Made by a program: the position numbers and the translations under genes. Under the pieces are notes generated by a model. That model saw only the letters and a program-made list of their open reading frames with translations. It was not told the DNA's origin and ran no database searches. Positions 13,467 through 37,445 of a stretch of DNA of 62,470 nucleotides are shown here, piece by piece (within the stretch, counting starts at the first letter, position 1; the number at the start of each line of letters is the position of its first letter). The stretch covers positions 1 to 62,470 of the forward strand of contig CAYVZU010000009.1 in the NCBI GenBank assembly GCA_964455935.1, written 5' to 3'. The stretch is from an uncultured Fibrobacterota bacterium (lineage in GTDB: Bacteria > Fibrobacterota > CAYVZU01).

Positions 13467-13709
13467 ATGCCTGAATATTTTACATCAGGTCAGGTTGCCA
13501 AAAGACTGCGGGTGTCTGTATCCACCCTCAAACGCTGGAGCGCATTGCGAGACAGCGCCAATGGTGAGACGCGCAACGCAAGCGGCTGGATGTTGTTCTC
13601 GGAAACCGACATTACGGACCTAAGACGATTTAAACGCGATCGACGCCGCATCGGACGGAACTTCAGCAAGGAAACGCTGGAGCCCGCCAACGGGTCGGAG
13701 GGAAAATGA
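13467..13709 (+). CDS. Small MerR/excisionase-type HTH DNA-binding protein heading the Agl-Glt-like operon
   Basis: YFTSGQVAKRLRVSVSTLKRW...RNASGWMLFSETD. Strong RBS gaggagg. Its stop overlaps the next ATG (ATGA). Confidence 0.8.
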   Translation: MPEYFTSGQVAKRLRVSVSTLKRWSALRDSANGETRNASGWMLFSETDITDLRRFKRDRRRIGRNFSKETLEPANGSEGK

Positions 13710-14791
13710 ATCTGCCGCGGTCGAGTCTGGCGCTGGCGACAGTTCTGGTTTTGTGCGCCACAGCCCAGCTCAATGCCGATCTGAAGCGTTCCCGGACGGA
13801 GGACCTGATGGAGGTCCGCGCCTCCAATACCGAAGGCTTCTCCAACATCTGGGCGGGAGCGGATGTGCACTGCGAGTATCGCGACAATTCGCTGTCGATC
13901 GAGCCCAAGGTGTGCGGGCGCATCGGGCTGGCTTCACTGCTTCACCTCAGCGGTAGTACGGGCGTTCCCAAGGGGCGCACTCTGGGCACAACCGAGGTCC
14001 ATGCGCAGATCACACTTCCCGGAAACGACCGGCTTCGATTCATTGGCATGGCCGCAAGCGGCGACATGCTTCTGACAACCCGGGCCGATCCCGAATCCGA
14101 CAGACCCCCTTTCGTTCCCTATCTGGGATTCACGGCCCTGATCGATTTGGACCTGATCGCCAAATTCCCCTGGCTGCCGTTGAAACTATACGTGAATGCC
14201 ACAAATCTGGCCGGGGAAAACATCATGCTCTATTTCACGCCGGTCAGTCTGCTGGGGGGAATCGAGTATAAAGGAAGCCGTCACAGCTACTTTGCCAGCG
14301 GACAAGCCATGGTGTTAAAGCAGAACAATGATATTGAGCTGACCCAGATTAAGTCCTCCGGCGAATTCGATCAATTTCTTTTCTATGTATATCCGGGACT
14401 ACGCTATCGAATCAGCGACCGCATCAGCCTGGTGGGCCGCGGCCGGCTGCTGCTCCTCTCCATTGGCGATAGTCCCTATTTGCCGCAGCGAATGCTTGGC
14501 GTTTCAATCGGCGCGGAGATTCCTTTGCTGTTCAAGGACACCGATGCCGAAGCGCTGCGAAGTTTGATTTTCGTCGAACGTAGGCGCAAGTCGAACCAGT
14601 CCGTCGCCAAAGCAAAGGCGGCGGCCGCCCAGGGCCAGGGTCGAATGGCCGCGATTATGCCCGCCGACTCGCTGGCGACCGGCGAGGCCCAGAGACGAAG
14701 CAATGATTATTTCAAACAGCGCGAGGAACTCCGCAACAGTCGCAAGAAGGTTCTGGAAGACATGGAGAAAATTGAGGAGATGCTGGAATAA
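13706..14791 (+). CDS. Putative outer-membrane beta-barrel protein with C-terminal coiled coil (paralog A)
   Basis: Signal peptide, alternating amphipathic strands, charged helical tail. Shares motifs with the next gene (PLKLYVNA vs PLTLYANA; GIEYKG in both). Confidence 0.65.
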   Translation: MNLPRSSLALATVLVLCATAQLNADLKRSRTEDLMEVRASNTEGFSNIWAGADVHCEYRDNSLSIEPKVCGRIGLASLLHLSGSTGVPKGRTLGTTEVHAQITLPGNDRLRFIGMAASGDMLLTTRADPESDRPPFVPYLGFTALIDLDLIAKFPWLPLKLYVNATNLAGENIMLYFTPVSLLGGIEYKGSRHSYFASGQAMVLKQNNDIELTQIKSSGEFDQFLFYVYPGLRYRISDRISLVGRGRLLLLSIGDSPYLPQRMLGVSIGAEIPLLFKDTDAEALRSLIFVERRRKSNQSVAKAKAAAAQGQGRMAAIMPADSLATGEAQRRSNDYFKQREELRNSRKKVLEDMEKIEEMLE

Positions 14792-14952
14792 TGTTCTGCC
14801 GCCGAATTCAACATTCGAACTCCGGGCACCGGAAAGGCGCCAAAGGACCGCTTGCGGATGCGCGCAGGCGCCAGCGAAACCGGTCCGCGGGAGCCGCCGA
14901 CCCGCTTGATCGCGGACTTCGAATCTCGAATTTGTCCGGAGTTATTCGGCAC

Positions 14953-19918: not shown

Positions 19919-19919
19919 T

Positions 19920-22964: not shown

Positions 22965-23037
22965 GTCAAAATTATGAATTATGAATTGCGGATGAGGAAA
23001 TGAAAGTAACTACTCAGGTCCTACTGCGCGGTGGTAT

Positions 23038-23107
23038 TGTCATTTCGACGAGTCTTCGAAGAGAAATCTTGGGGGAAGAAAGATTTCTCGCTTCGCTCGA
23101 AATGACA
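23038..23107. repeat. Palindromic REP/RPE-like element, copy 2 (inverted relative to copy 1)
   Basis: TGTCATTTCGACGAGTCTTCGAAGAGAAATCT...AGATTTCTCGCTTCGCTCGAAATGACA. Confidence 0.9.
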
Positions 23108-23167
23108 TGGAAAAAATGAAAAGTTTCGAATGAAAAGCAGAAGAAGAAAAATGCAGCAGGAGAAAGA

Positions 23168-23578
23168 ATGAAGACAAAACACAAACTTGGGCATGTAGTC
23201 CAATCCATCCTTCATCCTTCATCCCTCATCCTCGTTGTGACGGCCGCCCTGTTGACGATTTCCGCGGCTCCGCCCCGGCCATCTGCAGCTCCGGCATCCA
23301 AACCGGCCAAGCCCGCCTCCGCGGCAGCCCCCAAAACCGCGGCGCCCGACACCGCGGCCAAATCGGACGACCGGCAGAGCTTCGTACTGCGACGGCCCGG
23401 CGAAATCACCTTCACGACCGGCGCAGTGATCGAGGGCAAAATCGAGAAGCCGCAAGTCATGATTATTCTGCCCAAAGAAAAAATACAGGCCGACTCGATC
23501 ATCTTCGATCAGAGCTTCCGCGCGCAAATGCTGGAGCCCCTTGATATTCAGAGCGTGCGGGCAACGGAGATGGAATAG
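23168..23578 (+). CDS. CglF/GltF-like small exported protein
   Basis: Signal peptide, Ala/Pro linker, then ITFTTGAVIEGKIEKPQVMIILPK...F...L, which resembles the IEGxxxKP core of CglF/GltF. Sits between the TPR genes and the motor genes. Confidence 0.7.
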   Translation: MKTKHKLGHVVQSILHPSSLILVVTAALLTISAAPPRPSAAPASKPAKPASAAAPKTAAPDTAAKSDDRQSFVLRRPGEITFTTGAVIEGKIEKPQVMIILPKEKIQADSIIFDQSFRAQMLEPLDIQSVRATEME

Positions 23579-23675: not shown

Positions 23676-24317
23676 ATGTTTAGCGCGGAATCCATTGCCC
23701 GGTTTTTCAAAGAGGGTGGCATCTTCATGTACGTGATCGCGGGGGTGTCGGCCCTTGCCCTCGGCGTGTTGCTGGAACGGATTTTTTATTATCTGGTCCG
23801 CTGCCGCATTAACGCCAAGGCCCTGTTGGCCGAAGTCATGCGGCTCATCCGCAGCGACAAGATCGAGGAAGCCCGTAAAGTCTGCGCCTCCAGCCGAGCG
23901 CCGCTGGCCCAGATTTTGGAGGCCGGCGTTTATCATTTTCAGCAGGGGGAATCGGACCAGGAAATCCAGAATGCGGTGGACGAAGTCGCGCTTCGCGAAC
24001 TGCCCAGAATCAACCGGCGCACGCACTACCTTTCATTGTTCGCCAACGTCGCCACCCTGCTTGGACTGCTGGGGACCATCCAGGGCCTGATCTCATCATT
24101 TGCGGCCTTGGCCACGGCCGAGGCTTCACAGAAAGCGACTCTTTTGGCCGGCGGCATTGCCGTGGCCATGAATACCACGGCCTTGGGACTGGTGGTGGCC
24201 ATCCCCTGCATGGTGGCATTTTCGATTCTGGGCTCAAAAGCCAATACGATTATCGAGGAAATTGACGAGAGTTCCGTCCGGATTTTGAATTTCCTTTTTT
24301 CGCAGCGCCGCCACTGA
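23676..24317 (+). CDS. MotA/TolQ/ExbB proton-channel protein (AglR-like)
   Basis: GGIFMY...LER and RTHYLSLFANVATLLGLLGTIQGLI...AMNTTALGLVVAIP. RBS ggaggt. Confidence 0.93.
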   Translation: MFSAESIARFFKEGGIFMYVIAGVSALALGVLLERIFYYLVRCRINAKALLAEVMRLIRSDKIEEARKVCASSRAPLAQILEAGVYHFQQGESDQEIQNAVDEVALRELPRINRRTHYLSLFANVATLLGLLGTIQGLISSFAALATAEASQKATLLAGGIAVAMNTTALGLVVAIPCMVAFSILGSKANTIIEEIDESSVRILNFLFSQRRH

Positions 24318-24338: not shown

Positions 24339-24854
24339 ATGGCAGAACTCGAAAAAATCCAAGGCAAAGCCGAGGGCAAGCCGGCGACGAAAAGAGCCTT
24401 GCGCGGCGCCGGGGCCGGCGGGCTCGAAACCGTCGATCTCGACGTAACCCCGGTCATGAACCTTTTTCTGGTCTTGATTCCGTTCCTTGTCTCCATGGCC
24501 GTGTTCACGCATCTGGCCATCGTGGAGTTTTCGCTCCCGCCGGGCGTTTCAGACCAGAGCGAAGCCGACCCCACAACCCCGGATCACATCGACATCTCGG
24601 TGGTCCTTACCGACAAAGGCTACACCATTATGGGTTCCGGACAGAAGCTGGAACTGGTGCCCAAATCGGGCGAACGCTACGATTTCGAAGCCCTGATCCG
24701 GCAGCTCAAGGCCATCAAATACAAATACCCGCAGGAAGAAAGCATTGTTCTGGTCGTGGAGCCTTCCGTGCTCTACGAGGACATCATCCATTTCATGGAC
24801 AAGTGCCGCGAAAGCCAGTTTCCCAACATTGGCTTGTCGGGAGGATTTCAATGA
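24339..24854 (+). CDS. ExbD/TolR protein (AglQ-like), with Asn at the conserved TM Asp
   Basis: LDVTPVMNLFLVLIPFL transmembrane segment and ExbD periplasmic fold (VLYEDIIHFMD). Confidence 0.88.
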   Translation: MAELEKIQGKAEGKPATKRALRGAGAGGLETVDLDVTPVMNLFLVLIPFLVSMAVFTHLAIVEFSLPPGVSDQSEADPTTPDHIDISVVLTDKGYTIMGSGQKLELVPKSGERYDFEALIRQLKAIKYKYPQEESIVLVVEPSVLYEDIIHFMDKCRESQFPNIGLSGGFQ

Positions 24855-25177
24855 GTCTGCATATCAAGCGAAAGATCAACAGGGATTTCGCGATCATCAA
24901 GCTTTCGGGAGAGGCCACCTCGGAAGAGGTCAGCAAACTTTCCAAAGCCATTGAGGAAAGCCGCGTCAAAGGGTTCCGCAAGATCGCCGTGGATGTGGCG
25001 GAAACCGTTTTTCTCGATAGCTCGGCTCTTGGCGTTCTGATTCTCAACTACAAGATGCTATCGAAGGAGAATGGCGACCTCTGTCTGCTGAGCCCCACCC
25101 TATACATCCGCGATCTGCTGCGCAATTCGAATCTCGATACGGTCTTCCGGCTCGTGGACAGCGAAGAGGATTTATGA
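24851..25177 (+). CDS. STAS-domain protein (anti-sigma-factor antagonist family)
   Basis: IAVDVAETVFLDSSALGVL, with the conserved phosphorylatable Ser. ATGA overlaps with both flanking exbD genes. Confidence 0.9.
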   Translation: MSLHIKRKINRDFAIIKLSGEATSEEVSKLSKAIEESRVKGFRKIAVDVAETVFLDSSALGVLILNYKMLSKENGDLCLLSPTLYIRDLLRNSNLDTVFRLVDSEEDL

Positions 25178-25686
25178 GCTTTCCGGCCTGCAAATCGTCC
25201 GGAATGAAGCCGCGCAAAACACGTGCGCGTACGCCCAAGGCCTTTAAGGTCCAGCTAACCTCTTTGGTGGATGTAATGACCATTTTGCTTGTGTTCCTGA
25301 TAAAAAGCTTCTCGGCCGAAGGCAACGTCATGAACGTTCCGCAGGATATCAAGCTTCCGGCTTCCACGGCCCAGAAGCAGCCAAAACCCGCAATCATTCT
25401 CTCGATCAACAATCGGATTCTGCTGGCTGAGGGCGACCCCGTTGCGGACATGACCGAGATGATAAAAACCGACGATCTCTTGATCGAGCCGCTTTACAAC
25501 TGGCTTGGAAAACGGCGCTCGATGACCGAGAAGATCGCGCAATATTCCACAACAACGGAATTCAAAGGCGAGATCGCGATCCAGGGCGACCGCAAAATTC
25601 CATTCCGGCTTCTGCAGAAGATCATGTTTACCTGTGGCCGGGTGGGCTATAGCAACTTTTCGCTGGCCGTCATCCAGGAGGAGTAG
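25174..25686 (+). CDS. ExbD/TolR protein (AglS-like)
   Basis: LTSLVDVMTILLVFLIKSFSAEG, LPAST, IQGDRKIPFRLLQKIMFTC...FSLAV. Alternative start at 25204. Confidence 0.9.
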   Translation: MSFPACKSSGMKPRKTRARTPKAFKVQLTSLVDVMTILLVFLIKSFSAEGNVMNVPQDIKLPASTAQKQPKPAIILSINNRILLAEGDPVADMTEMIKTDDLLIEPLYNWLGKRRSMTEKIAQYSTTTEFKGEIAIQGDRKIPFRLLQKIMFTCGRVGYSNFSLAVIQEE

Positions 25687-26744
25687 TGGAGTTTCCGGGA
25701 CAGGAACCCATCATTGTCGGGAGCGCCGTCCGGGCGCCCACCGCCAGCGTTGCGGCCATTCGCGGGAGCTTCTTTCAGAATCTCGATCCGCGTCTGGCGG
25801 GGTTGATGCTGGTTTCGATGCTCATTCACGGCGGGGTTGTCGCATACTTGTACAGGGTGCCCACGCCAAAGCGCGAAGCGATGGAGCTGGAAAAGATTCC
25901 CGAACGTTTCGCAAAATTCATCATCGATAAACCCTTGCCCAAGAAAGAACAGGCAGGCCGCGCAAAGGGCGAGGGCGGGCAAAAGAGTTCGAAAACCGCG
26001 GAAACAGCAAAGGCCGAACCGGCCAAGGGTACGGAGGTCGATCCCGCGGTTCAGGCGAAGCGCGTCGCGCAGGCCCAAAAGAGCGTAGCCAAGAGGGCCC
26101 AGCGGGCCGAGGCCATGCTTCGCAATTCGGGGGTCCTAGGTATGCTTTCAGGGCTGGGGGCCACGGGCAAGGGGCCGGCGGTGGTGGATGTGCTTGGACG
26201 CGCGGGCCGGGTAAGCGCCGCCACGGACCTCGAATCGCAGTTGCAGGGAGTTACCGGCCTGACCAGCGCCGCCACGGCCATGAACCAGCCGCTCGTGCGA
26301 AGCCGTGAGGGTGTGGGAACCGCGCAAAAGGCCGACATTTCGGACCTGATCATGGGGCTGGAGGGTGCAAGAGCGAGCTCGCTCGCCCACCGGGGCGAAA
26401 TTCAGTGGTACAAGCCGCCCGAGATCGTGGGCCAGGCTTCCAGTAGCGCCAAGCGCGCCCAGGAAGCCATCAACCGCGTCGTGAAGGACAAACTAACCAC
26501 CATCAAAGTCACCTATGAACGCATTTTAAAATTAAACCCGAACCTCTCGGGCAAATTGACGGTGCGCTTCACGATCGAGGAGGATGGCAGCGTGTCGAAT
26601 GTGGAGATCATCGAAACGACAGTGAATTCCCCCGAACTGGAGCGGGAAATCATCCGCAAAGTGGAACGTTGGATATTCGAACCGCTGGCCTCCGGCAGCG
26701 GAACCACGGTCGTAACATACCCGTTTATTTTTCAGTCGAAATAA
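25686..26744 (+). CDS. TonB-like protein with AgmX/PglI (GltG/GltJ) C-terminal domain
   Basis: GTG start overlapping the previous stop. Single TM with SxxxH (SMLIHG), ERFAKFII, SGVLGML, C-terminal YERILKLNPNLSGKLTVRFTI...VTYPFIF. Confidence 0.88.
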   Translation: MEFPGQEPIIVGSAVRAPTASVAAIRGSFFQNLDPRLAGLMLVSMLIHGGVVAYLYRVPTPKREAMELEKIPERFAKFIIDKPLPKKEQAGRAKGEGGQKSSKTAETAKAEPAKGTEVDPAVQAKRVAQAQKSVAKRAQRAEAMLRNSGVLGMLSGLGATGKGPAVVDVLGRAGRVSAATDLESQLQGVTGLTSAATAMNQPLVRSREGVGTAQKADISDLIMGLEGARASSLAHRGEIQWYKPPEIVGQASSSAKRAQEAINRVVKDKLTTIKVTYERILKLNPNLSGKLTVRFTIEEDGSVSNVEIIETTVNSPELEREIIRKVERWIFEPLASGSGTTVVTYPFIFQSK

Positions 26745-26764: not shown

Positions 26765-27715
26765 ATGGTCGTGACTTCCCCATCGATTCGCCGGGCCGGG
26801 TTTCACCGGCGGGGTTGTTGTTTCCCGGTTCTAATCGGGCTGTTTTTGGCGGCCGCCGTTCTGGCGCCGCTGCCCTGCGCGGCGGGTATCCTGCGCGCGG
26901 GCGACGCGCTTGAGATCTTTGTGGCCGATCACCCGGAACTGACCCGAAAAGTGCTGGTCTCCGCCGAGGGCACGCTCGACTATCCGTTCTTCAGCGATCG
27001 CTCGGTGCTGGGCCTAACCCCGGAGGAGGTCTCAGACCTGCTTATGTTTCGCTTGGCCAAGAGCATCACCAACCCATTTGTCCTCGTCACGCCTTTGCGT
27101 TCGCTGCCCATCACGGTCCGCGTGCTGGGTCAGGTGAAGAAGCCGGGTCAGATTCAGCTTCCAGTGGGGTCCAGCATGCAGGAGGTCCTGATGGCCGCCG
27201 AAGGGCCCACCGATTTCGCCAATCTTGCCGATGTGCGCCTGATCCGGGACAAAGCGACCGAGGCCGATGCCGTGCGGGTGGATTTCCGCAAGTTCATGGA
27301 GACCGGCAACATCTCCCTGCTTCCCGAGATCCGCAACAACGACACCGTGATCCTGCTGGCGAGCCCGCGCGACATGAAAGTGAAAGTCCTGGGATGCGTA
27401 AGCCGGCCCGGCTACTATTCCCTGCAGGGCGAGACCACAATTTTCGATGCCATCTACATGGCCGGCGGACCCGAAGACAAGGCCAACCTTTCCAAGATCC
27501 GGCATGTGCTGCAGACCCTGGACGGCAAGAATGTCGATCAGATTGTGGATCTTCAGAAGTATATTGATAAAGGACGCATGGACGAGATCCCCAAAGTCAA
27601 TGCGGGGGACGCCATTATTGTTTACAAAAAAATGTTCACCTGGGGAACGTTCCTGACATTGGTGCGGGATGCGCTGATGCTGTTTACCGCCTATCAGGTT
27701 TTCGTGGGGAGCTAA
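26765..27715 (+). CDS. wza: Polysaccharide export OPX/Wza protein (Poly_export + 2 SLBB)
   Basis: LRAGDALEI...VSAEGTLDYPF, VRVLGQVKKPG, VKVLGCVSRPG and a C-terminal amphipathic helix. RBS aaggag. Only 20 nt after the TonB-like gene. Confidence 0.88.
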   Translation: MVVTSPSIRRAGFHRRGCCFPVLIGLFLAAAVLAPLPCAAGILRAGDALEIFVADHPELTRKVLVSAEGTLDYPFFSDRSVLGLTPEEVSDLLMFRLAKSITNPFVLVTPLRSLPITVRVLGQVKKPGQIQLPVGSSMQEVLMAAEGPTDFANLADVRLIRDKATEADAVRVDFRKFMETGNISLLPEIRNNDTVILLASPRDMKVKVLGCVSRPGYYSLQGETTIFDAIYMAGGPEDKANLSKIRHVLQTLDGKNVDQIVDLQKYIDKGRMDEIPKVNAGDAIIVYKKMFTWGTFLTLVRDALMLFTAYQVFVGS

Positions 27716-29905
27716 ATGGGAACCCTCTCGCGCGCGCAGGGCATTGGAGGCCGCGAGGTGCGGCTGCAGGACTACCTGGGTATCCTGCAGCGCCGGTATC
27801 TTAGTATCGTCGTCACCTTTCTGGCCGTGGCGGGCTCGACCGGTTTTTTTATCTGGCAGAAACCCGATCTGTATCGGGCCTTTTCAACACTCGTCATTGA
27901 GGAAGAACAGTCGGCCTTTGCGTTGGCGGGACTGGCCGAGGCCGGCCGTCCCCTGGGATTCTACCAAGGGCTCCTCAGCAGCCGGTCGTATCTCGAAGAG
28001 ACGCTTGATTCCATCGGCATCTGGACCTTCCGCGACGTTCTGCCGGATCCCCTCAGAAACGATACATTGGCCATGTTGGCCTATATTCGCGACCACATCT
28101 CTCTAGGGCCAACCAATTTTCAGTCGCTCCAGCAATTCACGGCTACGGCGGCCACCAGCGAACTGGCATACCGCATGGCCCTCTATGGCACGCTGGTATT
28201 TCGAAAGCGATGCGGCGAGGTGGAGGCCGAACAGTCTCGCGAGACGGTGATCCAACTCGAGAAGCAGATCACGATCATCCGCAAGAAACTGGAAGAGGCC
28301 GAGAAGGATTTTCAGGCCTATCGCGACCGCAGCGGATTGAGCAACGAAGGCATGGACGCGGAACTCGCGCACCTGCAGGAGGTTTATTTTAAAGAACGCA
28401 CCGAACGAACGCTGCGGGAAGCCGAATACGAGGCCACCAAGGGCCAGCTCGAAATTCTCGAACGCAAAATTACTCCCCCCTCGGAAAGCGAGACCGAAGA
28501 GGTCCGCAAGCTGCGCAACACGTTGCGCGAATTGGAACGCGAGAAACTTCGCCTGTTGTCGCTCAACATCACCATTTCGCCCAGTTCCCCCCTGCAGAGC
28601 GAGATCAACACCATCGAACAGCAGATCCTGCAAGCCAAGGGAAAAAGCAACAGCGCGCGCGAGATGACCAATCCGGGTCTCGTCAACCAGTGGCAGGCGC
28701 TGCGAAGCAAGGTGGCCAGCCAGGAACTGGAAATCGAATTCTCGAAAAAGCGGCTTGCCTCGTACCGGTCCTCGATCGAAGAATACCGGGCCCAACACCC
28801 CGAAATCGTGGACCAGATCTATGAGCTGTCCCGGCTGGACCGTGCTCGAAAAATCTATGAGGAAACCTACAACCTTTTGCTGGGCAAGGTGGAGGAAGCC
28901 AAGATCCGGGGAATTTCCGAGTCCGGCCGCATCAAGATCATCGATCCCGCTTACCGCCCCGGCAGTCCGATCCCAAAAAATTCCGGACGGTTCTATGCCG
29001 CCGGGATTGTCATCGGAATTCTGTTGGGTTTCGGGCTGGCCTTTTTTGTCGAGTTCAACGATACCACGGTCAAGACCAGTGAAGACATCGAACGTTTTCT
29101 TAATCTGCCGGTGATCGGCACAATCCCCCATATTGTGGTGCCCAAGACAGAGGCCCTGGAGCTCCGGCGCTCAGCCAGCAAATCCCGAAAGAAGGAAGAA
29201 CAAACCCGGTATCCCAAGAACCTGCTTAATTTTTCGAACGATGAATCCATCGCGTCGGAGGCCTACCGCAGTCTCCGCACCAACCTGCTGTATTCCAGTC
29301 CCGACAAGCCGATTCGGTCACTGGTGATGACCAGTTCGGGGCCGGGCGAAGGAAAATCGCTCACCGTGACCAATGTCGCCCTAGCCTACGCCCAGATGGG
29401 TTCGAAGGTCCTTCTGGTGGACACGGACCTGCGCCGGCCGGTGGTGCATCACCTGTTCCAGATCCGTCGCGAGCCGGGGTTTTGCGAGCTCTTCCTTCCC
29501 AATCCCGACTGGAGCCAGATTGTGCGGCCGTCTCCAGTCTCCAACCTCAGCATCATCCCGGCCGGTCGGTTTACGCCCAGCCCAGCCGAGCTGATCGGCG
29601 CCCACAAAATGGATAACGTGCTCGAGCAGATGAAAGAACGGTTTGATATCATCTTTTTCGACACGCCGCCTCTGGTCGCGGTCACCGATGCCACGCTGTT
29701 AAGCAAGAAAGTGGACGGCGTGGTCCTTGTCGTCAAGTCGCGGAGAGCGGAACGTGAACTCACCAAAAGAGCCGTTGGCATTCTATCAAGCGTGGGCGTG
29801 AAGGTGATCGGCGCGGTGCTTAATGACATCGATTTATCGCACCGCTATTCGGGCTACGGTTACTACAAATACTACTATCATTACTACCGTTCGAAGAAGG
29901 ATTAG
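27716..29905 (+). CDS. wzc: Wzc polysaccharide co-polymerase / BY-kinase
   Basis: Two TMs flanking a coiled coil, EAYRSLRTNL, Walker A GPGEGKS, VDTDLRRP, DTPP, C-terminal Tyr cluster YSGYGYYKYYYHYY. Confidence 0.95.
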   Translation: MGTLSRAQGIGGREVRLQDYLGILQRRYLSIVVTFLAVAGSTGFFIWQKPDLYRAFSTLVIEEEQSAFALAGLAEAGRPLGFYQGLLSSRSYLEETLDSIGIWTFRDVLPDPLRNDTLAMLAYIRDHISLGPTNFQSLQQFTATAATSELAYRMALYGTLVFRKRCGEVEAEQSRETVIQLEKQITIIRKKLEEAEKDFQAYRDRSGLSNEGMDAELAHLQEVYFKERTERTLREAEYEATKGQLEILERKITPPSESETEEVRKLRNTLRELEREKLRLLSLNITISPSSPLQSEINTIEQQILQAKGKSNSAREMTNPGLVNQWQALRSKVASQELEIEFSKKRLASYRSSIEEYRAQHPEIVDQIYELSRLDRARKIYEETYNLLLGKVEEAKIRGISESGRIKIIDPAYRPGSPIPKNSGRFYAAGIVIGILLGFGLAFFVEFNDTTVKTSEDIERFLNLPVIGTIPHIVVPKTEALELRRSASKSRKKEEQTRYPKNLLNFSNDESIASEAYRSLRTNLLYSSPDKPIRSLVMTSSGPGEGKSLTVTNVALAYAQMGSKVLLVDTDLRRPVVHHLFQIRREPGFCELFLPNPDWSQIVRPSPVSNLSIIPAGRFTPSPAELIGAHKMDNVLEQMKERFDIIFFDTPPLVAVTDATLLSKKVDGVVLVVKSRRAERELTKRAVGILSSVGVKVIGAVLNDIDLSHRYSGYGYYKYYYHYYRSKKD

Positions 29906-30025: not shown

Positions 30026-31213
30026 ATGCGAATCGCATTGGTCAACAGCGAATATTGCGGGCCGGGGGGCATTGGAGCATACACCCGCAATCTGTCCAAG
30101 GCCCTGACCAAGCAGGGCCACAGCGTTTTTATCCTAAGCAAGCTCGACGAAGACCAGCGCAACCCGGCATCCCCGGTAACGGTGTTGCCCGTTCGGCGAA
30201 GGCCCGCGAAGAACCGCGTTCTGCGCGGACTGGGCTACCGATTTTTCTGGGAAATTAATCTGCACCTGGAATATGCGGGCGGCGTCGCCGAAGCCCTGGA
30301 GGCTCTATTCCGGGCCAATCGGATTGACATTGCCGAAGTGCCTGACTTCTACGGCGAAGCCTGGGCCTTGGGAATAAAACATCCCTATGTATGCAGGCTG
30401 CACACGCCATGGACACTGGTGCGACAATGGAACTCCCATCCTGCTCGCCAGGCAGACCGCTGGATTGCCAGGATGGAAAAAAAAACCACGCGAAAGGCGG
30501 CCGGGGTCTCTTCGCCCAGCGCGGCGCTGCTGGGGCAAATCCCGCGCTCCTGGATGCCGCAAAATGCGCCGCATGCAGTCATTCCCTACCCCCTTGCGGA
30601 CCCAACGGCACGGACCGGCTCGGTAAAGACATTCCCGACCGAACTGCTCTTTTTGGGACGCCTCGAACGGCGAAAGGGCTTCGATTGGATCTGCCGTGTT
30701 CTGCCCGAAGTGCTGCGCGAATTCGCCGGCGCCGGCGCCGGTGCCGTTATTGCCGGCGCGGCGACCCAGGAGGCCCGGCCCTGGCTGGAACAGCTCGCGC
30801 AGGAACTCCGAAGCCGGGGATTGGAGGAACGCTGTCGTATTCTGGGCGCTGTCGACGAAGCCCGAGCCTCTGAACTCATGGCCCGCGCCGACATCGTTAT
30901 GGTCCCCTCGCGATTTGATAATTTTCCCAATGTGATTTTGGAAGCCATGGCCGCGGGTCGCTGCGTCGTGGCCTGCCGGGCGGGCGGAATCCCCGAAATG
31001 GTCGAAGACAATGTTTCTGCCCTGCTCTTTGCGCCCGAAGCTGGTCATGAGGGCCTGCGCCGGTGCCTCCGGCAAGCGCTCATGGGCGGTGAACTCCGCC
31101 AGCGATTGGGACGAGCCGGCCGCAAGGCTGCAACGCGGCGCTACTCTCCGGATGTTATTGCGCAGCAGACGGTTTCCTTTTACCAGGAGGTATTGTCGCG
31201 GTGGAACCCCTAA
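30026..31213 (+). CDS. Glycosyltransferase family 4
   Basis: GGIGAY, FLGRLERRKG, PSRFDNFPNVILEAMA, GGIPEMV. Confidence 0.92.
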   Translation: MRIALVNSEYCGPGGIGAYTRNLSKALTKQGHSVFILSKLDEDQRNPASPVTVLPVRRRPAKNRVLRGLGYRFFWEINLHLEYAGGVAEALEALFRANRIDIAEVPDFYGEAWALGIKHPYVCRLHTPWTLVRQWNSHPARQADRWIARMEKKTTRKAAGVSSPSAALLGQIPRSWMPQNAPHAVIPYPLADPTARTGSVKTFPTELLFLGRLERRKGFDWICRVLPEVLREFAGAGAGAVIAGAATQEARPWLEQLAQELRSRGLEERCRILGAVDEARASELMARADIVMVPSRFDNFPNVILEAMAAGRCVVACRAGGIPEMVEDNVSALLFAPEAGHEGLRRCLRQALMGGELRQRLGRAGRKAATRRYSPDVIAQQTVSFYQEVLSRWNP

Positions 31214-32460
31214 GAATCTGTTTCATCTCGCGCGAATATCCGCCTCTTTCCCATACGGGGGGAATCGGTACGTATGCCCATGTGGCGGCCGAAGGCCTCG
31301 CCCGGCGCGGTCATTGCGTACATGTCATCTGCGTGGGTCCCGGGGAATCGCACGAGGTCAGCCCTGCCGGCGCCTTTGTGCACCGGATTCAAATTCATCC
31401 GTTTCTGCTTCCTGCCGGTCGCCTCTGGTATTCACTCCGGGCCGTGGCTCGGCAACTGGCCTTCTCGTATCTCGACAATCAGGCCTGGAGCTATGGCGCA
31501 GCCGCTTTCCTGCGGCCCCTGGCCGCCCATGAAGATCTGCGCGTGATCGAATACGCCGAAACCAATGCCGAAGGATTTTACTCGATGCAAAGCAGCGCGC
31601 TGGCCCGGGTCTGCCGGCTCCACATCGGCGGCTGGAGCGAGTCGGCCAGCAACGTCCGCAAAGACCTACTGGCCGCCAGATTGACATACAGACTCGAGCG
31701 TCGTTCCATTCTATCGGCCCATCGCATCACCAGCCCCAGCCGTGCCCTGGCCGATCTTACGGCCAAAACGCTCGGGATCGATCACAACCAAATCCGGGTC
31801 TACCCCAATCCGCTGGATCTGGAGTTCACGGGCAATGCGGCGGCACCGCGAAAACAATTCGAGGGCCGCATTCTATTCGTGGGCCGTATCGAACGGCGCA
31901 AGGGCACCGACCTGCTGCTGGGCGCGTTCATTAACCTGCTGGCCCGGTTTCCGCAATCGCGTTTGCGCATTGTGGGCCAGGACTATGGGTATTACTTCGA
32001 TCAAAAAAAGGGCGTGGACCAGCTCAGGCAGCTGATCGAGGAATATGGAATCGCCGACAAGGTGGAGTTTCTGCCGCGCATGGACCGCCCGCGGCTGATT
32101 GAGCAGTACGCCTGGGCCGATGTAGTCGTGGTGCCTTCGATCAACGAGAACCTTCCCTATGTTGTGCTCGAGGCGCTGTCGCAGTTCCGGCCGGTGGTCG
32201 CCAGCGACTGCGGCGGAATCCCCGAAATTGTGCAGGACGGCACAACCGGCATTCTCTTCGCCACCGGAGATATTTCAGGGCTGACTTCGGCCCTGGTGCG
32301 GCTATGGGAAAATCCGGCCATGGCAACGGCCCTGGGTCAGGAAGCAGGCATTCAGATCCGCCGGCGGTATTCATTGGAAGGACTGCTGCCGAAAATGGAG
32401 CAGGCTTATTACGAAGCCATGGAAGAGAGTCGTGAGTCGCCGGTAATGAGTCGTAAGTAG
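31201..32460 (+). CDS. Glycosyltransferase family 4
   Basis: GTG start, EYPP...GGIGTY, FVGRIERRKG, PSINENLPYVVLEA, GGIPEIV. Confidence 0.92.
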   Translation: MEPLRICFISREYPPLSHTGGIGTYAHVAAEGLARRGHCVHVICVGPGESHEVSPAGAFVHRIQIHPFLLPAGRLWYSLRAVARQLAFSYLDNQAWSYGAAAFLRPLAAHEDLRVIEYAETNAEGFYSMQSSALARVCRLHIGGWSESASNVRKDLLAARLTYRLERRSILSAHRITSPSRALADLTAKTLGIDHNQIRVYPNPLDLEFTGNAAAPRKQFEGRILFVGRIERRKGTDLLLGAFINLLARFPQSRLRIVGQDYGYYFDQKKGVDQLRQLIEEYGIADKVEFLPRMDRPRLIEQYAWADVVVVPSINENLPYVVLEALSQFRPVVASDCGGIPEIVQDGTTGILFATGDISGLTSALVRLWENPAMATALGQEAGIQIRRRYSLEGLLPKMEQAYYEAMEESRESPVMSRK

Positions 32461-32474
32461 ACAAAGGCGGAGGG

Positions 32475-33164
32475 ATGAGCCAAAGCGAAGAGTCGGTCAA
32501 CGAAAAAACCCCGGGGGCCAAATCTCCTCTACCGCAACGCGCGACGCACCTTCGCCCCCGTTTGATTTATCGCGCAGCCAAACGGATCATCGATCTTTTG
32601 GGCGGATTGCTTGGGACGGTGGTAACCCTAATCTTGGCGGTCCCGATCTCGGTAGCCATCAAATTCGATTCGCCGGGTCCGGTTCTATTCCGCCAGACGC
32701 GGGTCACCCGCAACGGAATACGGTTCCGGTTCTACAAGTTTCGCACCATGGTGGTGGATGCGACCATGCGCCAAGCCCAGCTGGATCGGCTTAACGAAGC
32801 GACCGGACCCATTTTCAAGATCCGCGACGATCCGCGCGTAACCCGGGTGGGCCGCTTTCTCCGGCGCTACAGCCTCGATGAGCTGCCCCAGTTCCTCAAC
32901 GTGGTCAAGGGAGACATGAGCCTGGTTGGCCCGCGGCCGCCGCTGGACCATGAAGTGATTCAGTATTCGGACTTTCACCGAAAACGATTGCTGGTAAAGC
33001 AAGGAATGACCGGCTTATGGCAGATCAGCGGAAGAAGCAAACTGACATTTGAGAAGATGGTGGATTTGGATGTCTACTACGTCGAAAACCAGTCGCTGAA
33101 ACTAGATCTGCAAATCCTCGCGCAAACCCTTCCAATTGTTGTCAAGGGCATTGGATCGTATTGA
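32475..33164 (+). CDS. Priming phosphoglycosyl transferase (WcaJ/CpsE sugar-transferase family)
   Basis: KRIIDL, KFRTM, DPRVTRVGRFLRRYSLDELPQ, GDMSLVGPRP, GMTGLWQ. Confidence 0.95.
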   Translation: MSQSEESVNEKTPGAKSPLPQRATHLRPRLIYRAAKRIIDLLGGLLGTVVTLILAVPISVAIKFDSPGPVLFRQTRVTRNGIRFRFYKFRTMVVDATMRQAQLDRLNEATGPIFKIRDDPRVTRVGRFLRRYSLDELPQFLNVVKGDMSLVGPRPPLDHEVIQYSDFHRKRLLVKQGMTGLWQISGRSKLTFEKMVDLDVYYVENQSLKLDLQILAQTLPIVVKGIGSY

Positions 33165-33266: not shown

Positions 33267-36200
33267 ATGAGAACGCGTATTTCGGCCTTAGGAATTTGTT
33301 TGTCGATTTTAGCAAGTCTTTCGATGGCGGCAATCGGTGATTCGATCTGCAGCATTCAATCCAAGCCGGGGACTTGTGTAGAGGCAAAAGACAAAGATAC
33401 GGTTTTTGTTCCCGCAGACATGATGTTGTTCGGAAAGGAAGTGTCGTTCTGCCCCGATACGGTTCCCGGAACGCGCGGAAAAGTGCAGATCATCATGGTG
33501 CTCGACAAATCCGGGAGTATGGACGGTACCGACCCCAATCGAAGACTCCCCACAAGAGCCGATAGCGTCGTCGAACAGGTCCGCAGAATGAGTCCCGACA
33601 GCAAAATCGGAATTATCCTGATGCCCGGAAGAGCGGGTGGCACAACACCACAGGGACTTCCTCCAGTCTCGCTCAATAACGCGGCCAATGTGGGCTTGCT
33701 TCATACCTGGATCAACTACGCCAGAACCCATGGCGGTTACACCCCATATGGCGCCAGTCTCGATACGGCCCTGACTTACTTTGGCCGGCTGCCGGCAACC
33801 GATACAAACCGTGTACTCATTTTTCTTTCGGATGGAGAACCGTGCTTAGGGGGGACTCCTTGTACCGATCCCAGGTATGACTTATTTGTGAGCGCCGGCC
33901 GACGGGCCCTGCTCCCGCCCACCTATACGATTTACTATTATGCCACCAGCCCAAGCGCGACCGCGGCAGGTGTTCTCCAAAGCCTGGCCGCCAATGCAGA
34001 CGCGGGCAGGGGCGCATACTACCCGGCCCCCAACGCGGATGCGCTCGATGCGGTGTTCGATGATATTCTTCGCACAATTCAACCGACCCGTACCGTCGAA
34101 AACTTCTTCATGCTCAACACAATGACCGGCCAAACCGTCATGGCCAATACGAGCGATACGGCCAAGAAGGTGATGGTGCCGTTCGAACAAATATATCTGC
34201 AGCCCGGCGCCAACACGGTTCAATTCTATTACAAAACCAAGGGCGACACTTCAGCGCCCACGGAAAACGACATCTTCAAAACGGTCACCCTTTTCCGCCG
34301 GCCAGGCAGCACAACATCGGGTCAGAACGCGGAGTTCGACAGTACATTCATGGATGTGTGCTTCGAAAAAAGTAGCATAACGTTCACCAATGCCAGCTAC
34401 GTTTCGATGCCCGCGGGTGCGGTTTATGACCCCAATTTCCTCAATGTTTATGTCGGCGGCCGCCGCGGGCCGGGGACAAGCACAACGGCGGCCGACACGG
34501 CCACTGTTGTCATCACATCACGAAGCGGCGACGCGGAACGAATCACAATCACCGAGACGGGGCTCAGCACGAATGCGTACCGCGGGCTTGTGCGGCTGAC
34601 CAACAGCAGTTCCCGCGTTCAGTACGACAACAATCTCCAGGTGTTGGCCATCGATACGCTGTACCTGCGGTACCTAAATCCCGAGTATTATTCCAACGGA
34701 CAGTACTACGATATGAGCTTGGACACGATTGTCGTTCGCTACATTGGAAAGGTCAAATCGATTGTGCTGTACGAGGAACCGGGTAATCCTGCCTCGCTCG
34801 TACCGCTGGCGAACCCAACTACTCCAATCGAGGTGGTGGTGACCGAGCCTCAGACCCTCTGGGCCAAGGGTTTTGACGGCAATGGCTACTGGCTGGGCAA
34901 TCCCACCACGGGTCTTGACACGATAAAGGTCCGCTGGACCACAACCGGGTTTAAAGGGACAATCCTGTTGATAGGCACGGCCGATTCCGCGTACAAGCTG
35001 TTTGCGCCGCAATTGGCTTATGATACGGGATATGTGATCGCCTCGAAGGACACCGGCGGCGGAGTAATCAGGGACTCTATTCGCGTCATCACCAGACCCG
35101 GTCCGCCTGTGCGGTTGAGCATCGAAGACCAGCCCAATGGGCTTTCGGTGGCTTCCATCGACACACTTGTGGTGCCTGCCGGAAAGCTCAGCGATACGGT
35201 TTACGCGGTCGGCAGGGACACATTCGATAACTTCACGGGGAATATCGCAAGCACCTGGTCGAAATCGCTTGCAAACACGATCTTCTCCGCCTCACCCGGG
35301 CCGGACACAAAAAGTACCGTTACGCGAACACCGGCAAATGCAACGGGAATAGGATTCCTGCGGGCACTGGCGGCTTCCTTACCGGCCGAGACAATCCAGG
35401 TGAAGCTGGTTGACTATTATTATACGGCCCTGCAAATCAATGAAGTCCCGGGCGGAAATATCACTGACAAGGCCATAAACACGGGCCAGAGCGTCTCCTT
35501 GGTGGCCTATGGTCTAAGGTCAACTGATGGCAATTGGGAACCGGTCAATGTCACCTGGAGCCTCACGAACCTGGTGGATCAAAATGGCGCGGCCCCAACA
35601 GGAACGCCTACGTATACATTCGAGCCGAAATCACCGGGAAGCGGACCGGGCAATACCGGAACGATCACCGCTACCTTGACGCAGTATGGCGCGGGGAGCA
35701 CGCTGACCGATGTCGTGAACATGACCGTCACGCCGCAGCCGCCCACTCGCTATACAACCGTCCTTAGCCCCACGCGGTTGGCTGCGGGCGGAACCATGAA
35801 CGTGGCGCTCACGGCCTGGAACGACGATGGCGTGTACCCGGTCAATCTGGACATGAGCATGTGCTGGTATTCGGACCAGGTGAAACTGCCGTCGAATACC
35901 ATTCCGCAAACCATCGCGGGCAACAACATGGGGAATGCCGCGGCCCCCGCATGTTTCCTTGTTCATTTCACCAATGGCGTATCCTCGCTCAACACCGTGT
36001 TGACGATCGTAACACCCGTGTATGGCAGCCGGCTGCACTTTTATGATACGCGCGGCATTACCACGGTTGACAGCACAGGCACCTTTATTGTGACGCCGGG
36101 GGCGCTTGCGGCCCTTCAAATCGTGAACAGCCAAGGCGCGGAAATGCTCGCACAAACCACAAACAATAAAAACGGCCGGATTGAATTGTATCTGCAAGGA

Positions 36201-37445
36201 TACGATGGTTACGGAAACCTGATTTCAAACACAATCGGTACCTGGTCCACAACGTCGCCGCTGACGGATAACCAGTTTGTCAGAACATTGCCGAATCCCG
36301 GACCCGAGGCGATATATACGCCCGTGGAAGACCCCGGCGATCATTGCGGCCTCATTCGAGTTGATAACGGGGCAATTTGGGATACAATCAGTGTCTGCGT
36401 TGTAGATTCACTCCTGGCCCGAATGGAACCTGTCATCACCCGCGATACGGATGGCGACGGCTACCTGGACCGGCTGGATGTACACCTGAATGAGCCTGTA
36501 AAAATCCTGTCCAGCGCCAATGTTGAGGCGGCTTTTGTAGTGTCCGGCCAGGTTGCGGGCAGGACGGTAACCTGGAGAGTAATTGGAATTACCGGCGTCA
36601 ACTCGACAACCGGCGATTACCAGTTGACACTCGAAGAACATGCCGATTCCCTTGAAACCGGCGCCACCCCAACCGTCACCTTCATTCCCTGGGCAGGCAT
36701 GGTGGGCATGCAGCCGGGTACGTATCAGTCCGTTGACGGGGCCGGGCCCGTGATCAAGACCGTTGTTCTTAACGACCAAGGCACCACCGAGCCGGCCGAT
36801 GATCAGATTACGGTCACGTGGAGCGAACCCCTTGGCGGGTGGAATTCGACCGCATTATCGGCCAATCAGGTTCTGACCGTCTGGAAACCGATTACAGATT
36901 CCCTGCCGGGTTTGCTGACCGGCTGCCCAATTTATCCGCCGTATGGAATACGCGCGATTGTCGATGTCCTAAACGGGGCCATGCTCGAGACCAACCACTG
37001 GTTCTCGATCGACTCCATTCAAGGCGGAGTCAAAGACATTTACAACAACTATTCGCTAAAGACGAACCGGAAGGTGCAGCTCCAGATTGTGGGCCCGGCG
37101 AAACCTCGCATAATAATCTATCCCAATCCGATCAACTACGAACGTCTGAAAAATCCTGGATCCGGCTACCAGCCCCACATCAGCCTGTTGATCTACGATA
37201 CCTCGGAGGTATCGATTATGATTTATGACCTTGCAGGCAATCTGGTCCGGAAGTTTGGTCCCATGACCCTGGCCAACAACATCGGCGTGACCGGGACACG
37301 GGCGCGTACACATGTTCTTGATTTCTGGGATGGGACCAACGGTCGCGGTCGCATTGTAAACCGCGGCGGTTATATTGCCAAGGCGCTCGTACGGCCTCTC
37401 GGCGGCAAGGCCCAGCCCCTTTTCTTCAAGCTCGCGGTCCAATAG
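33267..37445 (+). CDS. Large secreted VWA-domain adhesin with Ig-like repeats and T9SS/FlgD-type C-terminal domain
   Basis: 1392 aa. Signal peptide, MIDAS DKSGS...TPY...LSDGEP, Thr-rich beta-sandwich repeats, DTDGDGYLD Ca-binding loop, tail IYPNP...IYDLAGNLVR...WDGTNGRG. Confidence 0.85.
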   Translation: MRTRISALGICLSILASLSMAAIGDSICSIQSKPGTCVEAKDKDTVFVPADMMLFGKEVSFCPDTVPGTRGKVQIIMVLDKSGSMDGTDPNRRLPTRADSVVEQVRRMSPDSKIGIILMPGRAGGTTPQGLPPVSLNNAANVGLLHTWINYARTHGGYTPYGASLDTALTYFGRLPATDTNRVLIFLSDGEPCLGGTPCTDPRYDLFVSAGRRALLPPTYTIYYYATSPSATAAGVLQSLAANADAGRGAYYPAPNADALDAVFDDILRTIQPTRTVENFFMLNTMTGQTVMANTSDTAKKVMVPFEQIYLQPGANTVQFYYKTKGDTSAPTENDIFKTVTLFRRPGSTTSGQNAEFDSTFMDVCFEKSSITFTNASYVSMPAGAVYDPNFLNVYVGGRRGPGTSTTAADTATVVITSRSGDAERITITETGLSTNAYRGLVRLTNSSSRVQYDNNLQVLAIDTLYLRYLNPEYYSNGQYYDMSLDTIVVRYIGKVKSIVLYEEPGNPASLVPLANPTTPIEVVVTEPQTLWAKGFDGNGYWLGNPTTGLDTIKVRWTTTGFKGTILLIGTADSAYKLFAPQLAYDTGYVIASKDTGGGVIRDSIRVITRPGPPVRLSIEDQPNGLSVASIDTLVVPAGKLSDTVYAVGRDTFDNFTGNIASTWSKSLANTIFSASPGPDTKSTVTRTPANATGIGFLRALAASLPAETIQVKLVDYYYTALQINEVPGGNITDKAINTGQSVSLVAYGLRSTDGNWEPVNVTWSLTNLVDQNGAAPTGTPTYTFEPKSPGSGPGNTGTITATLTQYGAGSTLTDVVNMTVTPQPPTRYTTVLSPTRLAAGGTMNVALTAWNDDGVYPVNLDMSMCWYSDQVKLPSNTIPQTIAGNNMGNAAAPACFLVHFTNGVSSLNTVLTIVTPVYGSRLHFYDTRGITTVDSTGTFIVTPGALAALQIVNSQGAEMLAQTTNNKNGRIELYLQGYDGYGNLISNTIGTWSTTSPLTDNQFVRTLPNPGPEAIYTPVEDPGDHCGLIRVDNGAIWDTISVCVVDSLLARMEPVITRDTDGDGYLDRLDVHLNEPVKILSSANVEAAFVVSGQVAGRTVTWRVIGITGVNSTTGDYQLTLEEHADSLETGATPTVTFIPWAGMVGMQPGTYQSVDGAGPVIKTVVLNDQGTTEPADDQITVTWSEPLGGWNSTALSANQVLTVWKPITDSLPGLLTGCPIYPPYGIRAIVDVLNGAMLETNHWFSIDSIQGGVKDIYNNYSLKTNRKVQLQIVGPAKPRIIIYPNPINYERLKNPGSGYQPHISLLIYDTSEVSIMIYDLAGNLVRKFGPMTLANNIGVTGTRARTHVLDFWDGTNGRGRIVNRGGYIAKALVRPLGGKAQPLFFKLAVQ

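Follow-up and report, generated by a model that had tools for sequence, protein, structure and literature searches.

Why should a set of genes resembling the Agl/Glt motor of Myxococcus run directly into genes for a Wza-Wzc polysaccharide exporter? The question is raised by positions 13467-37445 of a 62,470-nucleotide stretch of DNA (the window), which is contig C9 of the genome of an uncultured Fibrobacterota bacterium (3.94 Mb in 193 contigs, 98.6% complete); the studied stretch is also found in four DNA sequencing runs, all from one groundwater study, with no RNA run listed. The locus consists of 17 open reading frames (ORFs), g01 to g17, all on the + strand. Comparison with relatives indicates that it is a long-conserved Fibrobacterota operon joining two modules, i.e. 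an Agl/Glt-type core complex and a Wza-Wzc export pair with a variable glycosyltransferase (GT) region. We propose, with belief only somewhat outweighing doubt, that the locus would encode a machine for polysaccharide export and surface assembly assisted by the proton motive force (PMF), an operonic counterpart of the Myxococcus Agl-Nfs and Exo systems. Its features are as follows.

13250-13279, +, candidate sigma-70-like promoter before g01 (TTGGCA-18-TATATT, 10/12; a consensus match only)
13467-13709, +, g01, small MerR-type helix-turn-helix (HTH) protein of 80 residues, conserved first gene of the block (MerR_1 25.1 bits, cut-off 21.6)
13706-14791, +, g02 (OM1), secreted paralogue of g03, probable outer-membrane (OM) beta-barrel with a charged C-terminal helix
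14791-16125, +, g03 (OM2), predicted OM beta-barrel of about 12-14 strands with charged C-terminal helices
16040-19918, +, g04 (TPR1), giant, predicted periplasmic TPR protein, possibly GltD-like, 1292 residues
19920-22964, +, g05 (TPR2), second giant TPR protein, 1014 residues, possible lipoprotein (N-terminal lipobox-like LAVSC)
23037-23110, no strand, palindromic dispersed repeat of 74 nt in the g05-g06 spacer (spacer fold -46.1 kcal/mol)
23168-23578, +, g06, small secreted protein of 136 residues with a conserved core, in the GltF slot (cluster of 26 sequences)
23676-24317, +, g07, MotA/TolQ/ExbB-type proton channel of the Agl-like clade (PF01618 100.5 bits)
24339-24854, +, g08 (ExbD1), ExbD/TolR-type protein with Asn replacing the transmembrane Asp (PF02472 52.1 bits)
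24803-25177, +, g09, STAS protein (anti-sigma-antagonist-like) between the ExbD genes (PF01740 45.6 bits; TIGR00377 60.3 bits, cut-off 53.45)
25174-25686, +, g10 (ExbD2), ExbD/TolR-type protein with the transmembrane Asp kept (PF02472 54.1 bits)
25686-26744, +, g11, GltG-like TonB-type transducer, 352 residues (NF033768 AgmX/PglI tail 88.4 bits, cut-off 40; TonB_C 30.1 bits, cut-off 24.6)
26765-27715, +, g12, Wza-type OPX protein with a C-terminal hydrophobic helix, class-1-like (Poly_export, SLBB_2, SLBB)
27716-29905, +, g13, Wzc-type PCP-2a tyrosine autokinase with a C-terminal Tyr cluster (TIGR01007 186.6 bits, cut-off 108; GNVR)
30026-33164, +, g14 and g15, GT4 glycosyltransferases, and g16, Bac_transf priming phosphoglycosyl transferase (215 bits), a variable biosynthetic tail
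33267-37445, +, g17, secreted protein of 1392 residues with an N-terminal VWA domain (VWA_2 28.8 bits, cut-off 27), a repeated middle module and a C-terminus weakly resembling type IX secretion system (T9SS) and FlgD_ig domains
37471-37496, +, intrinsic terminator ending the unit (11-bp stem, 8 GC, T tract)

Gene order and the gltG-wza junction

The order of genes read from the sequence in an earlier note agrees with the ORF listing and with Pfam and NCBIfam searches, which give a MerR-type HTH, g02 and g03 (no family), two TPR giants, g06 (no family), MotA_ExbB, ExbD, STAS, ExbD and TonB_C, followed by Wza, Wzc, GT4, GT4, Bac_transf and a VWA_2 protein. Between the longest ORFs, the gaps from g01 to g17 are -4, -1, -86, +1, +203, +97, +21, -52, -4, -1, -76, 0, +120, -13, +14 and +102 nt; likelier starts are ATG 14953 for g03, 16214 for g04, ATG 24851 for g09 (giving a 4-nt overlap) and 26765 for g12. 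The statement that many genes overlap or lie less than 25 nt apart thus holds for most of the gaps, but four of them span 97-203 nt. The stop of gltG (g11) at 26744 and the ATG of wza (g12) at 26765 enclose a junction of 20 nt, in which GGAAAGGAG is the ribosome-binding-site motif preceding the wza ATG, and no promoter or terminator was found that splits the motor and export halves. The sole strong terminator is the one at 37471-37496, 3' of g17, as had been noticed before; terminator-like sites within the locus are near shuffle expectation (32 against 24.4, standard deviation 3.9, both strands). Promoter-like sites in the region likewise show no excess over shuffle expectation, and a scan for sigma-54 promoters gave 21 matches against 32.7 expected, with none in the relevant spacers or before g01. 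The arrangement of the genes is more than chance, because it is conserved in relatives.

A profile scan using one genome per species yielded 79 loci around g11 relatives, 39 of which are close orthologues in Fibrobacterota metagenome-assembled genomes (MAGs), with GltG identities of 34-44% and submitter labels Chitinispirillaceae, Chitinivibrionales, Fibrobacteres and 'Fibrobacter sp.'. The gltG-wza adjacency seen in the window is conserved among them: wza comes straight after gltG in 35 of the 37 loci with at least 1200 nt downstream, starting 59-158 nt past the GltG match, and wzc is present in 33 of the 35 loci with at least 3500 nt downstream. The two exceptions are locus L011, where unrelated minus-strand genes follow, and L037, where an SLC12-type permease does. 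Upstream, the order OM2-TPR1-TPR2-small-MotA-ExbD-STAS-ExbD-GltG is kept in the relatives. Five of these were extended past the 10-kb flank and the next 10 kb downstream examined (20 kb in all); in each of the five, HTH and OM1 lie upstream of OM2, and the priming transferase is missing from this downstream extension. Most relatives have other GT2/GT4 genes after wzc, forming glycosyltransferase clusters (in L017, a methyltransferase-GT2 fusion, GT4, GT4, GT2 and GT4), and a set of priming transferase, GT4 and GT4 like that of the window occurs in only four of the 39 loci.

Distance matrices of the encoded proteins (29 rows) correlate at 0.96 for GltG-Wza, 0.96 for GltG-Wzc, 0.955 for Wza-Wzc and 0.925 for MotA-ExbD2. 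As relatedness alone gives correlation, these values are taken to indicate co-inheritance of the two halves without cassette swapping, and nothing more. Judged by these comparisons, conservation extends over g01-g13, after which comes a glycosyltransferase tail that varies.

In an even sample of the phylum, 40 of 120 other genomes, distributed over nine families, have a full-length g11 match at E <=1e-50; none of the 46 sampled genomes of family f2 reaches this level (best 2.4e-18). In one genome of family f11, an AgmX-tail gene and a Poly_export gene are adjacent. The genome of the window itself encodes six AgmX-tail proteins above the cut-off and, according to the stator tree described below, has four loci with Agl-like stator genes (on contigs C9, C47, C105 and C34). 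It has about eight OPX loci (nine Poly_export matches), but only the exporter on C9 adjoins a motor.

A looser linkage was found among the other 40 of the 79 loci, three of which have GltG, an ORF of about 200 residues, an ORF of about 470 residues ending in an aromatic residue, and then a Poly_export gene verified with Pfam. These three belong to a Myxococcales MAG (also with Wzc), a Myxococcota MAG and a gammaproteobacterial MAG; at a fourth locus with GltG, two ORFs and Wza, the Wza was identified by tblastn only. The four spans are L060 11423-16551 (with Wzc), L062 11682-14677, L075 11337-15393 and L086 11132-13989, and their intervening ORFs of about 200 and about 430-480 residues (the latter with an aromatic end, possibly a barrel) are homologous across the four loci; Pfam gives the ORFs of about 470 residues no family. 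Loci of KSB1, Calditrichota and similar groups have a motor block without Wza.

Components of the two modules

The stator protein g07 scores far below the cut-offs of the TIGR models for tolQ (73.6 against 221) and exbB (53 against 206). It shares 40% and 38% identity with two MotA genes of Anaeromyxobacter oryzae, each trailed by two ExbD genes in the MotA-ExbD1-ExbD2 order of the window locus, and 27-30% with the four Tol/Exb-type paralogues of that species. A stator tree (IQ-TREE, 42 rows) was made from E. coli tolQ, exbB and motA, six A. oryzae MotA_ExbB sequences and the MotA sequences of the fetched loci and of the genome itself, with no named M. xanthus AglR among its rows; the 120 listed homologues of the Agl-like A. 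oryzae MotA bear generic names only. In this tree, g07 lies within a 33-row clade holding every GltG-linked MotA and both two-ExbD A. oryzae genes, while TolQ and ExbB of E. coli fall in a separate 8-row clade, along with the four remaining A. oryzae genes and a gene on contig C23 of the genome; the supports of the clades, 87/84 and 95/52, are moderate. The placement agrees with that of the Fibrobacter succinogenes homologues, which fall inside the agl/glt clades according to Luciano 2011 (PMC3169522).

The predicted transducer g11 has a short cytoplasmic N-terminus, a transmembrane helix, a Lys/Ala-rich linker and an AgmX/PglI C-terminal domain. The His48 residue in its transmembrane helix is invariant in 20 sequences. 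GltG is its best NCBIfam match (E 6e-31), ahead of TonB; against the GltG equivalog NF033760 it scores 107.7 bits over model positions 329-647 only, short of the cut-off of 650. The M. xanthus protein is 640 residues long and includes an FHA domain (PMC3169522), which was not matched in g11. The earlier note had called the motor Agl/Glt-type, and the NF033768 match of g11, together with the position of g07 in a GltG-linked clade apart from Tol/Exb, supports a motor half of that type rather than an ordinary Tol/Exb set. None of the three outcomes that the note had named as contrary to its reading (clustering with Tol/Exb, an adjacency that is not conserved, a promoter or terminator between the halves) was obtained. 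Pfam and NCBIfam searches of the 17 genes showed no GltI- or GltJ-like gene, and no domains of TolB, Pal or a plug-bearing TonB-dependent receptor.

The two ExbD proteins differ at the proton-binding position. In ExbD1 it is Asn in all 38 wza-linked Fibrobacterota rows (loci L009-L046 and L078), and in ExbD2 it is Asp in 37 of the 38, the remaining row having a gap. Asn is also found in ExbD1 of eight of the 12 other GltG-linked rows and of the C47 and C34 sets of the same genome; both Agl-like ExbD pairs of A. oryzae have Asp in each gene. The STAS gene g09 (with a DSSALG motif) has a counterpart in 34 of the 38 loci with both ExbD genes. As a separate observation, a search with the STAS hidden Markov model (HMM) at E <=0.01 found more than 50 STAS-domain ORFs in the 3.9-Mb genome, among them one for a double-STAS protein just downstream of the locus (39447-40106); this abundance suggests a very large partner-switching network.

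Upstream of the stator gene, a g01 homologue (45-54% identity) precedes OM1 in all five extended relatives, in which a g02 homologue (28-37% identity) occupies the OM1 position. No Pfam or NCBIfam family was matched by g02 or g03, which are related to each other (27.5% identity, E 2.5e-10, BLAST) and have about 360-390 residues. An AlphaFold2 model of g03, built from 20 sequences (g03 and 19 homologues), is a beta-barrel in which no plug is seen (pLDDT 69.4, pTM 0.66), and in the Foldseek ranking the transporter FapF comes top (E 4.7e-7, TMt up to 0.62), ahead of porins. The earlier description of two OM barrels is thus supported, since g03 is predicted to fold as a barrel and g02 is its paralogue. 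A tblastn match to g03 was obtained in 23 of the 39 loci, the remaining ones being truncated by the flank limit.

In loci of Anaeromyxobacter and Myxococcales, a large TPR gene lies upstream of gltG, and the giant proteins g04 and g05 match it at 24-29% identity (tblastn); g04 contains TPR families with YbgF-type repeats (TIGR02795, 99.6 bits). NCBIfam gave no GltD-, GltE- or GltF-type match for g04-g06; with the GltE model NF033758, no match to g04 or g05 appeared at E 0.01, and a neighbouring A. oryzae gene scores 123.6 bits. For g06, which the earlier note had labelled CglF/GltF-like, the position stands and the sequence support is weak. Run over 40,250 stop-to-stop ORFs, which came from the non-orthologous loci and from the entire genome, an HMM of the g06 family gave 21 matches outside the genome (E 7e-8 to 9e-3). 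As these are all on the + strand just upstream of MotA or GltG, including an A. oryzae ORF at the gltF position, the GltF-like label has positional and weak sequence support. M. xanthus GltF is an 89-residue secreted protein encoded between gltE and gltG (PMC3169522). The best score of g06 in the ESM Atlas, 0.81, is a lead only.

In the export half, an AlphaFold2 model of g12 (pLDDT 86.3) aligns over the whole chain with E. coli Wza structures 9r64, 9r60 and 2j58 (Foldseek, E 1e-19 to 2e-18, 327-331 columns), compared with only 163 columns for the class-3 protein WzaB of M. xanthus. The helix at residues 293-315 is modelled at pLDDT >90, and a conserved hydrophobic C-terminal stretch of about 27 residues is present in g12 and in all full-length homologues among the 36 ORFs listed, the ORF of L027 being cut by a contig end; the Pfam Wza_C model did not match g12. 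By the scheme of PMC9603273, g12 is predicted to be a class-1-like OPX protein with no need for a separate porin. For this reason g02 and g03 are more likely to be partners of the motor than pores for polysaccharide. We also considered, and rejected as the principal interpretation, that g02 and g03 are 18-strand Wzp porins for a class-3 OPX protein (scheme of PMC9603273); the grounds are the C-terminal helix of Wza itself, the only 12-14 or so strands of g03, and the lack of BLAST similarity of g02 and g03 to the ORFs of about 470 residues preceding Wza in the Myxococcota loci.

The sequence of g13 displays Walker motifs (Walker A) and a Tyr-rich tail. No Wzx or Wzy was found among the scanned ORFs of the window, and a genome-wide search for Wzx placed six Wzx-like genes (Polysacc_synt matches) on other contigs. 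Since Wzx and Wzy are lacking in the window, the locus is not the self-contained system that the earlier note had envisaged. A predicted complex of Wza (22-290) and GltG (130-352) gave a score of 0.00 and a mark of 0.32, which is evidence neither for nor against contact.

The last gene of the unit, g17, encodes a protein with a signal peptide and a MIDAS-type DKSGS motif, in which residues from about 486 to 1300 form a module repeated in many proteins of 1200-3000 residues in 39 of 121 genomes of the phylum (its own included). For its VWA part, the only matches are to a paralogue on contig C6 of the same genome and in one of the 120 other genomes. No g17 match was present in the 39 flanks, which are able to show only the first few hundred bases, or in the downstream regions of the five extended relatives. 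These comparisons indicate that g17, placed last in the unit, is a passenger specific to its lineage and not a conserved adhesin of the machine, contrary to the earlier note, in which it was counted as part of the system. Pfam matches at its C-terminus are below threshold (FlgD_ig E 0.051, Por_Secre_tail E 0.24). Elsewhere in the window, two right-handed beta-helix proteins are encoded at 278-2437 (-) and 2649-4622 (-), the first of which scores 27 bits, equal to the Pfam cut-off, for the T9SS sorting domain Por_Secre_tail; the organism probably uses type IX secretion.

Proposed function and its alternatives

In the machine that we propose, the first module would consist of the g07 channel with its ExbD partners g10, carrying the proton-binding Asp, and g08, carrying Asn, and of the g11 transducer, joined by the TPR scaffolds g04/g05, the GltF-slot protein g06, the barrels g02/g03, a cytoplasmic STAS regulator (g09) and the HTH protein g01. 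The priming transferase would begin lipid-linked repeat units, which the GT4 enzymes would lengthen; a Wzx and a Wzy encoded outside the locus would flip and polymerise them, and the polymer would be exported via Wzc and the class-1-like Wza. Driven by the PMF, the stator would pull on the His-bearing transmembrane helix of GltG, and this work would be passed on by GltG, the TPR scaffold and the OM barrels to the cell surface, where it would help to release, move or wrap the exported polymer. The model for such surface work is the action of AglRQS-Nfs on the Exo/MASC spore-coat polysaccharide of Myxococcus. We infer the physical contacts, the use of the PMF and the action on the polymer from analogy, namely with the reported interaction of AglR and GltG (PMC3169522) and with the moving or winding of the Wza-exported spore-coat polymer by Agl-Nfs (PMC3858216; PMC12288465).

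Comparison with known systems places the locus between several of them. The core complex (aglRQS with gltD, E, G and C) has been described in Gamma-, Beta- and Deltaproteobacteria and in F. succinogenes, with multiple copies in Fibrobacteres, and was termed a basal transport machinery of unknown function (Luciano 2011, PMC3169522). The earlier remark that the core alone is not new because it occurs in Fibrobacter is therefore a published finding. The window locus resembles this complex in its clustering of one TolQ-like and two TolR-like genes with a GltG-type protein and large TPR proteins, and in its several copies per genome. It differs in running on into wza-wzc and glycosyltransferases, in the added STAS gene, MerR-like HTH and two OM barrels, in the Asn for Asp of ExbD1 and, relative to M. 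xanthus GltG, in the lack of an FHA domain. Polysaccharide has 0 mentions in the accessible text of Luciano 2011.

As in the M. xanthus AglRQS-Nfs and Exo/MASC systems, a PMF motor, a Glt-like envelope complex and a Wza-exported polymer would cooperate, but there the three gene sets sit at separate loci, whereas those of the window form one predicted operon. Moreover, the M. xanthus OPX protein is of class 3 with a separate barrel (PMC9603273), and that of the window has a C-terminal helix of its own. The export half is like an E. coli group 1 capsule locus in the fold match to full-length Wza, in a Wzc with Walker motifs and a Tyr cluster, and in the variable GT region after the export genes; unlike such a locus, it is accompanied by no wzb, wzi, wzx or wzy at its locus, and a motor block coupled to it lies upstream. 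With Tol-Pal and TonB-ExbBD, the locus shares the MotA_ExbB, ExbD and TonB_C superfamilies and a His-bearing anchor helix in the transducer, but its stator belongs to a separate clade, there are two ExbD paralogues, and the TolB, Pal or TonB-dependent receptor of those systems is absent from the 17 genes.

A description of an operonic fusion of core complex, Wza and Wzc was not found in the literature on GltG and Fibrobacter or on Agl, Glt, Wza and capsule, although Figure S1 of Luciano 2011 may bear on it; papers on Agl, Glt, Wzc and synteny were all on M. xanthus among the matches listed. In their accessible sections, two OPX surveys (one being PMC9603273) make no mention of TonB, Glt or Fibrobacter; ExbD is likewise unmentioned in one of the two, and Nfs in the other.

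Several observations weigh against a motor acting on the exported polymer. Loci L011 and L037 keep the motor block without wza-wzc downstream, so that the motor can stand without an adjoining exporter, and in four f2 genomes no AgmX-tail gene neighbours an OPX gene. The membrane helix of Wza leaves no obvious need for extra energy or an extra barrel in export. The four spacers of 97-203 nt could house internal promoters. Support for the Agl-like clade is moderate (87/84), in a tree that has no named AglR of M. xanthus to anchor it. Finally, the stand-alone core complex has no established function (PMC3169522), and the organism and its relatives are known from DNA alone.

Some of these points would fit two independent systems that merely share an operon, the motor doing a Tol-Pal-like or other job in the envelope and Wza-Wzc making an ordinary capsule or exopolysaccharide (EPS) with no mechanical link. 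An apparently complete class-1-like Wza and a Wzc with all kinase motifs form an exporter that needs no helper, the exporter is missing downstream in L011 and L037, and the motor sets on C47, C105 and C34 have no adjacent OPX gene. On the other hand, the adjacency in 35 of 37 loci, held across 34-44% GltG identity with a coupled junction of 20 nt and matched divergence of the two halves, is a long survival of gene order of a kind that is rare without shared function. A separate Tol/Exb-clade set also exists on C23, and Wza is found near GltG in unrelated phyla too. We therefore regard two unconnected systems as rather improbable, though as the best of the three alternatives.

A true gliding machine, in which the motor would move the cell, the Wza-Wzc polymer would be slime and the VWA protein would be a CglB-like adhesin to the substratum, is possible but unsupported, and we give it a small chance. 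The homology of motor and transducer to Agl/Glt, two paralogous OM barrels that recall GltA and GltB, and a VWA protein with a MIDAS motif, read from the sequence as part of the same transcription unit, would all suit it. Counterparts of the cytoplasmic part, however, were not seen, given that g11 is without FHA and the locus without GltI- or GltJ-like genes. Conservation of the system does not extend to the VWA protein; g17 resembles CglB in its VWA domain and MIDAS motif but differs in its 1392 residues, its repeated middle module, its weak T9SS-like tail and its lack of conservation beside the motor. CglB is a lipoprotein of a size unlike that of g17, which we count against gliding. The core genes have, moreover, been argued to be insufficient for motility, being present in non-gliders (Luciano 2011, PMC3169522).

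The least probable alternative, and in our view a slight one, is a TonB-like energised binding or uptake of products of insoluble polysaccharides (chitin, cellulose), as proposed for F. succinogenes FSU_2396-2403 (OmpA, TPR, TPR, MotA, ExbD, ExbD, TonB), which is found in the envelope proteome of cellulose-grown cells, is up-regulated on cellulose (Raut 2019, PMC6851124) and, compared by description, resembles g03-g11 in its row of an OM protein, two TPR proteins, MotA, two ExbD and a TonB-family protein, but which begins with an OmpA-family protein and has no wza-wzc reported beside it in the accessible account, whereas the window locus has no TonB-dependent receptor (g02 and g03 having about 360-390 residues, about 12-14 strands and no plug) and has export and biosynthesis genes for neighbours instead of hydrolases or importers; with only weak g11 matches in f2 (46 of the 120 genomes), the FSU cluster, if within f2, would be of a paralogous type.

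If the preferred explanation, in which the PMF assists polysaccharide export and its assembly at the surface, is true, the stand-alone core complex, without an assigned function since 2011 (PMC3169522), would gain a testable role. A bolder form of it is that the block preserves, or has re-created, the task for which the motors of gliding and of spore-coat assembly first arose: a proton-driven, TolQR-like stator in which one ExbD is 'dead' would act, through GltG, the TPR proteins and the barrels, directly on the Wza-Wzc translocon or the nascent polymer, coupled to the PMF and switched by a STAS partner-switching module, outside the Myxococcota, so that capsule or EPS export and spreading would be mechanically powered. 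This we consider conceivable but doubtful. Agrebi et al. are reported to have argued in 2015 that a capsule-assembly system gave rise to the gliding and spore-coat motors. Such an origin rests mainly on Myxococcus, in which the motor, Nfs and Exo genes are scattered; motor and exporter in one deeply conserved predicted operon of another phylum would turn the hypothesis into a simple genetic test, and the looser GltG-to-Wza linkage in some Myxococcota and a gammaproteobacterial MAG is of interest in the same context. Features worth study are the Asn/Asp pair of ExbD proteins, the STAS insert, a GltF-slot protein outside the Myxococcota, and a class-1 Wza accompanied by extra barrels. There is also a matter of annotation, as the genes of the motor block are at present named TonB/ExbB/ExbD 'biopolymer transport'.

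Paralogous loci, repeats and neighbouring genes

The further Agl-like stator loci of the genome lie at C47 11414-16667, C105 430-4038 (with two MotA genes side by side) and C34 25410-30613. A separate pair of giant TPR genes is found at C113 4261-10280, and the Tol/Exb-clade set occupies C23 30322-34969.

The 74-nt palindromic repeat between g05 and g06, which forms a long hairpin, has about 42 sites on 32 contigs of the genome, with further copies in the window at 7997-8072 and 44432-44578. The relatives have no g05-g06 spacer at its position. The element resembles intergenic repeats of the REP or MITE kind.

Just upstream of the locus, positions 10015-12939 encode a sigma-54-dependent response regulator (10015-11478) and a phosphofructokinase. 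A lipid A acyltransferase is encoded at 7001-7921, and an OM biogenesis cluster at 50720-58271 includes an LpxC-FabZ fusion, LpxD and BamA (five POTRA domains and Omp85). Near the AT-richer end of the window (GC content 0.48, against about 0.56 elsewhere), a gene at 60048-61508 (-) encodes the type I restriction-modification methylase HsdM.

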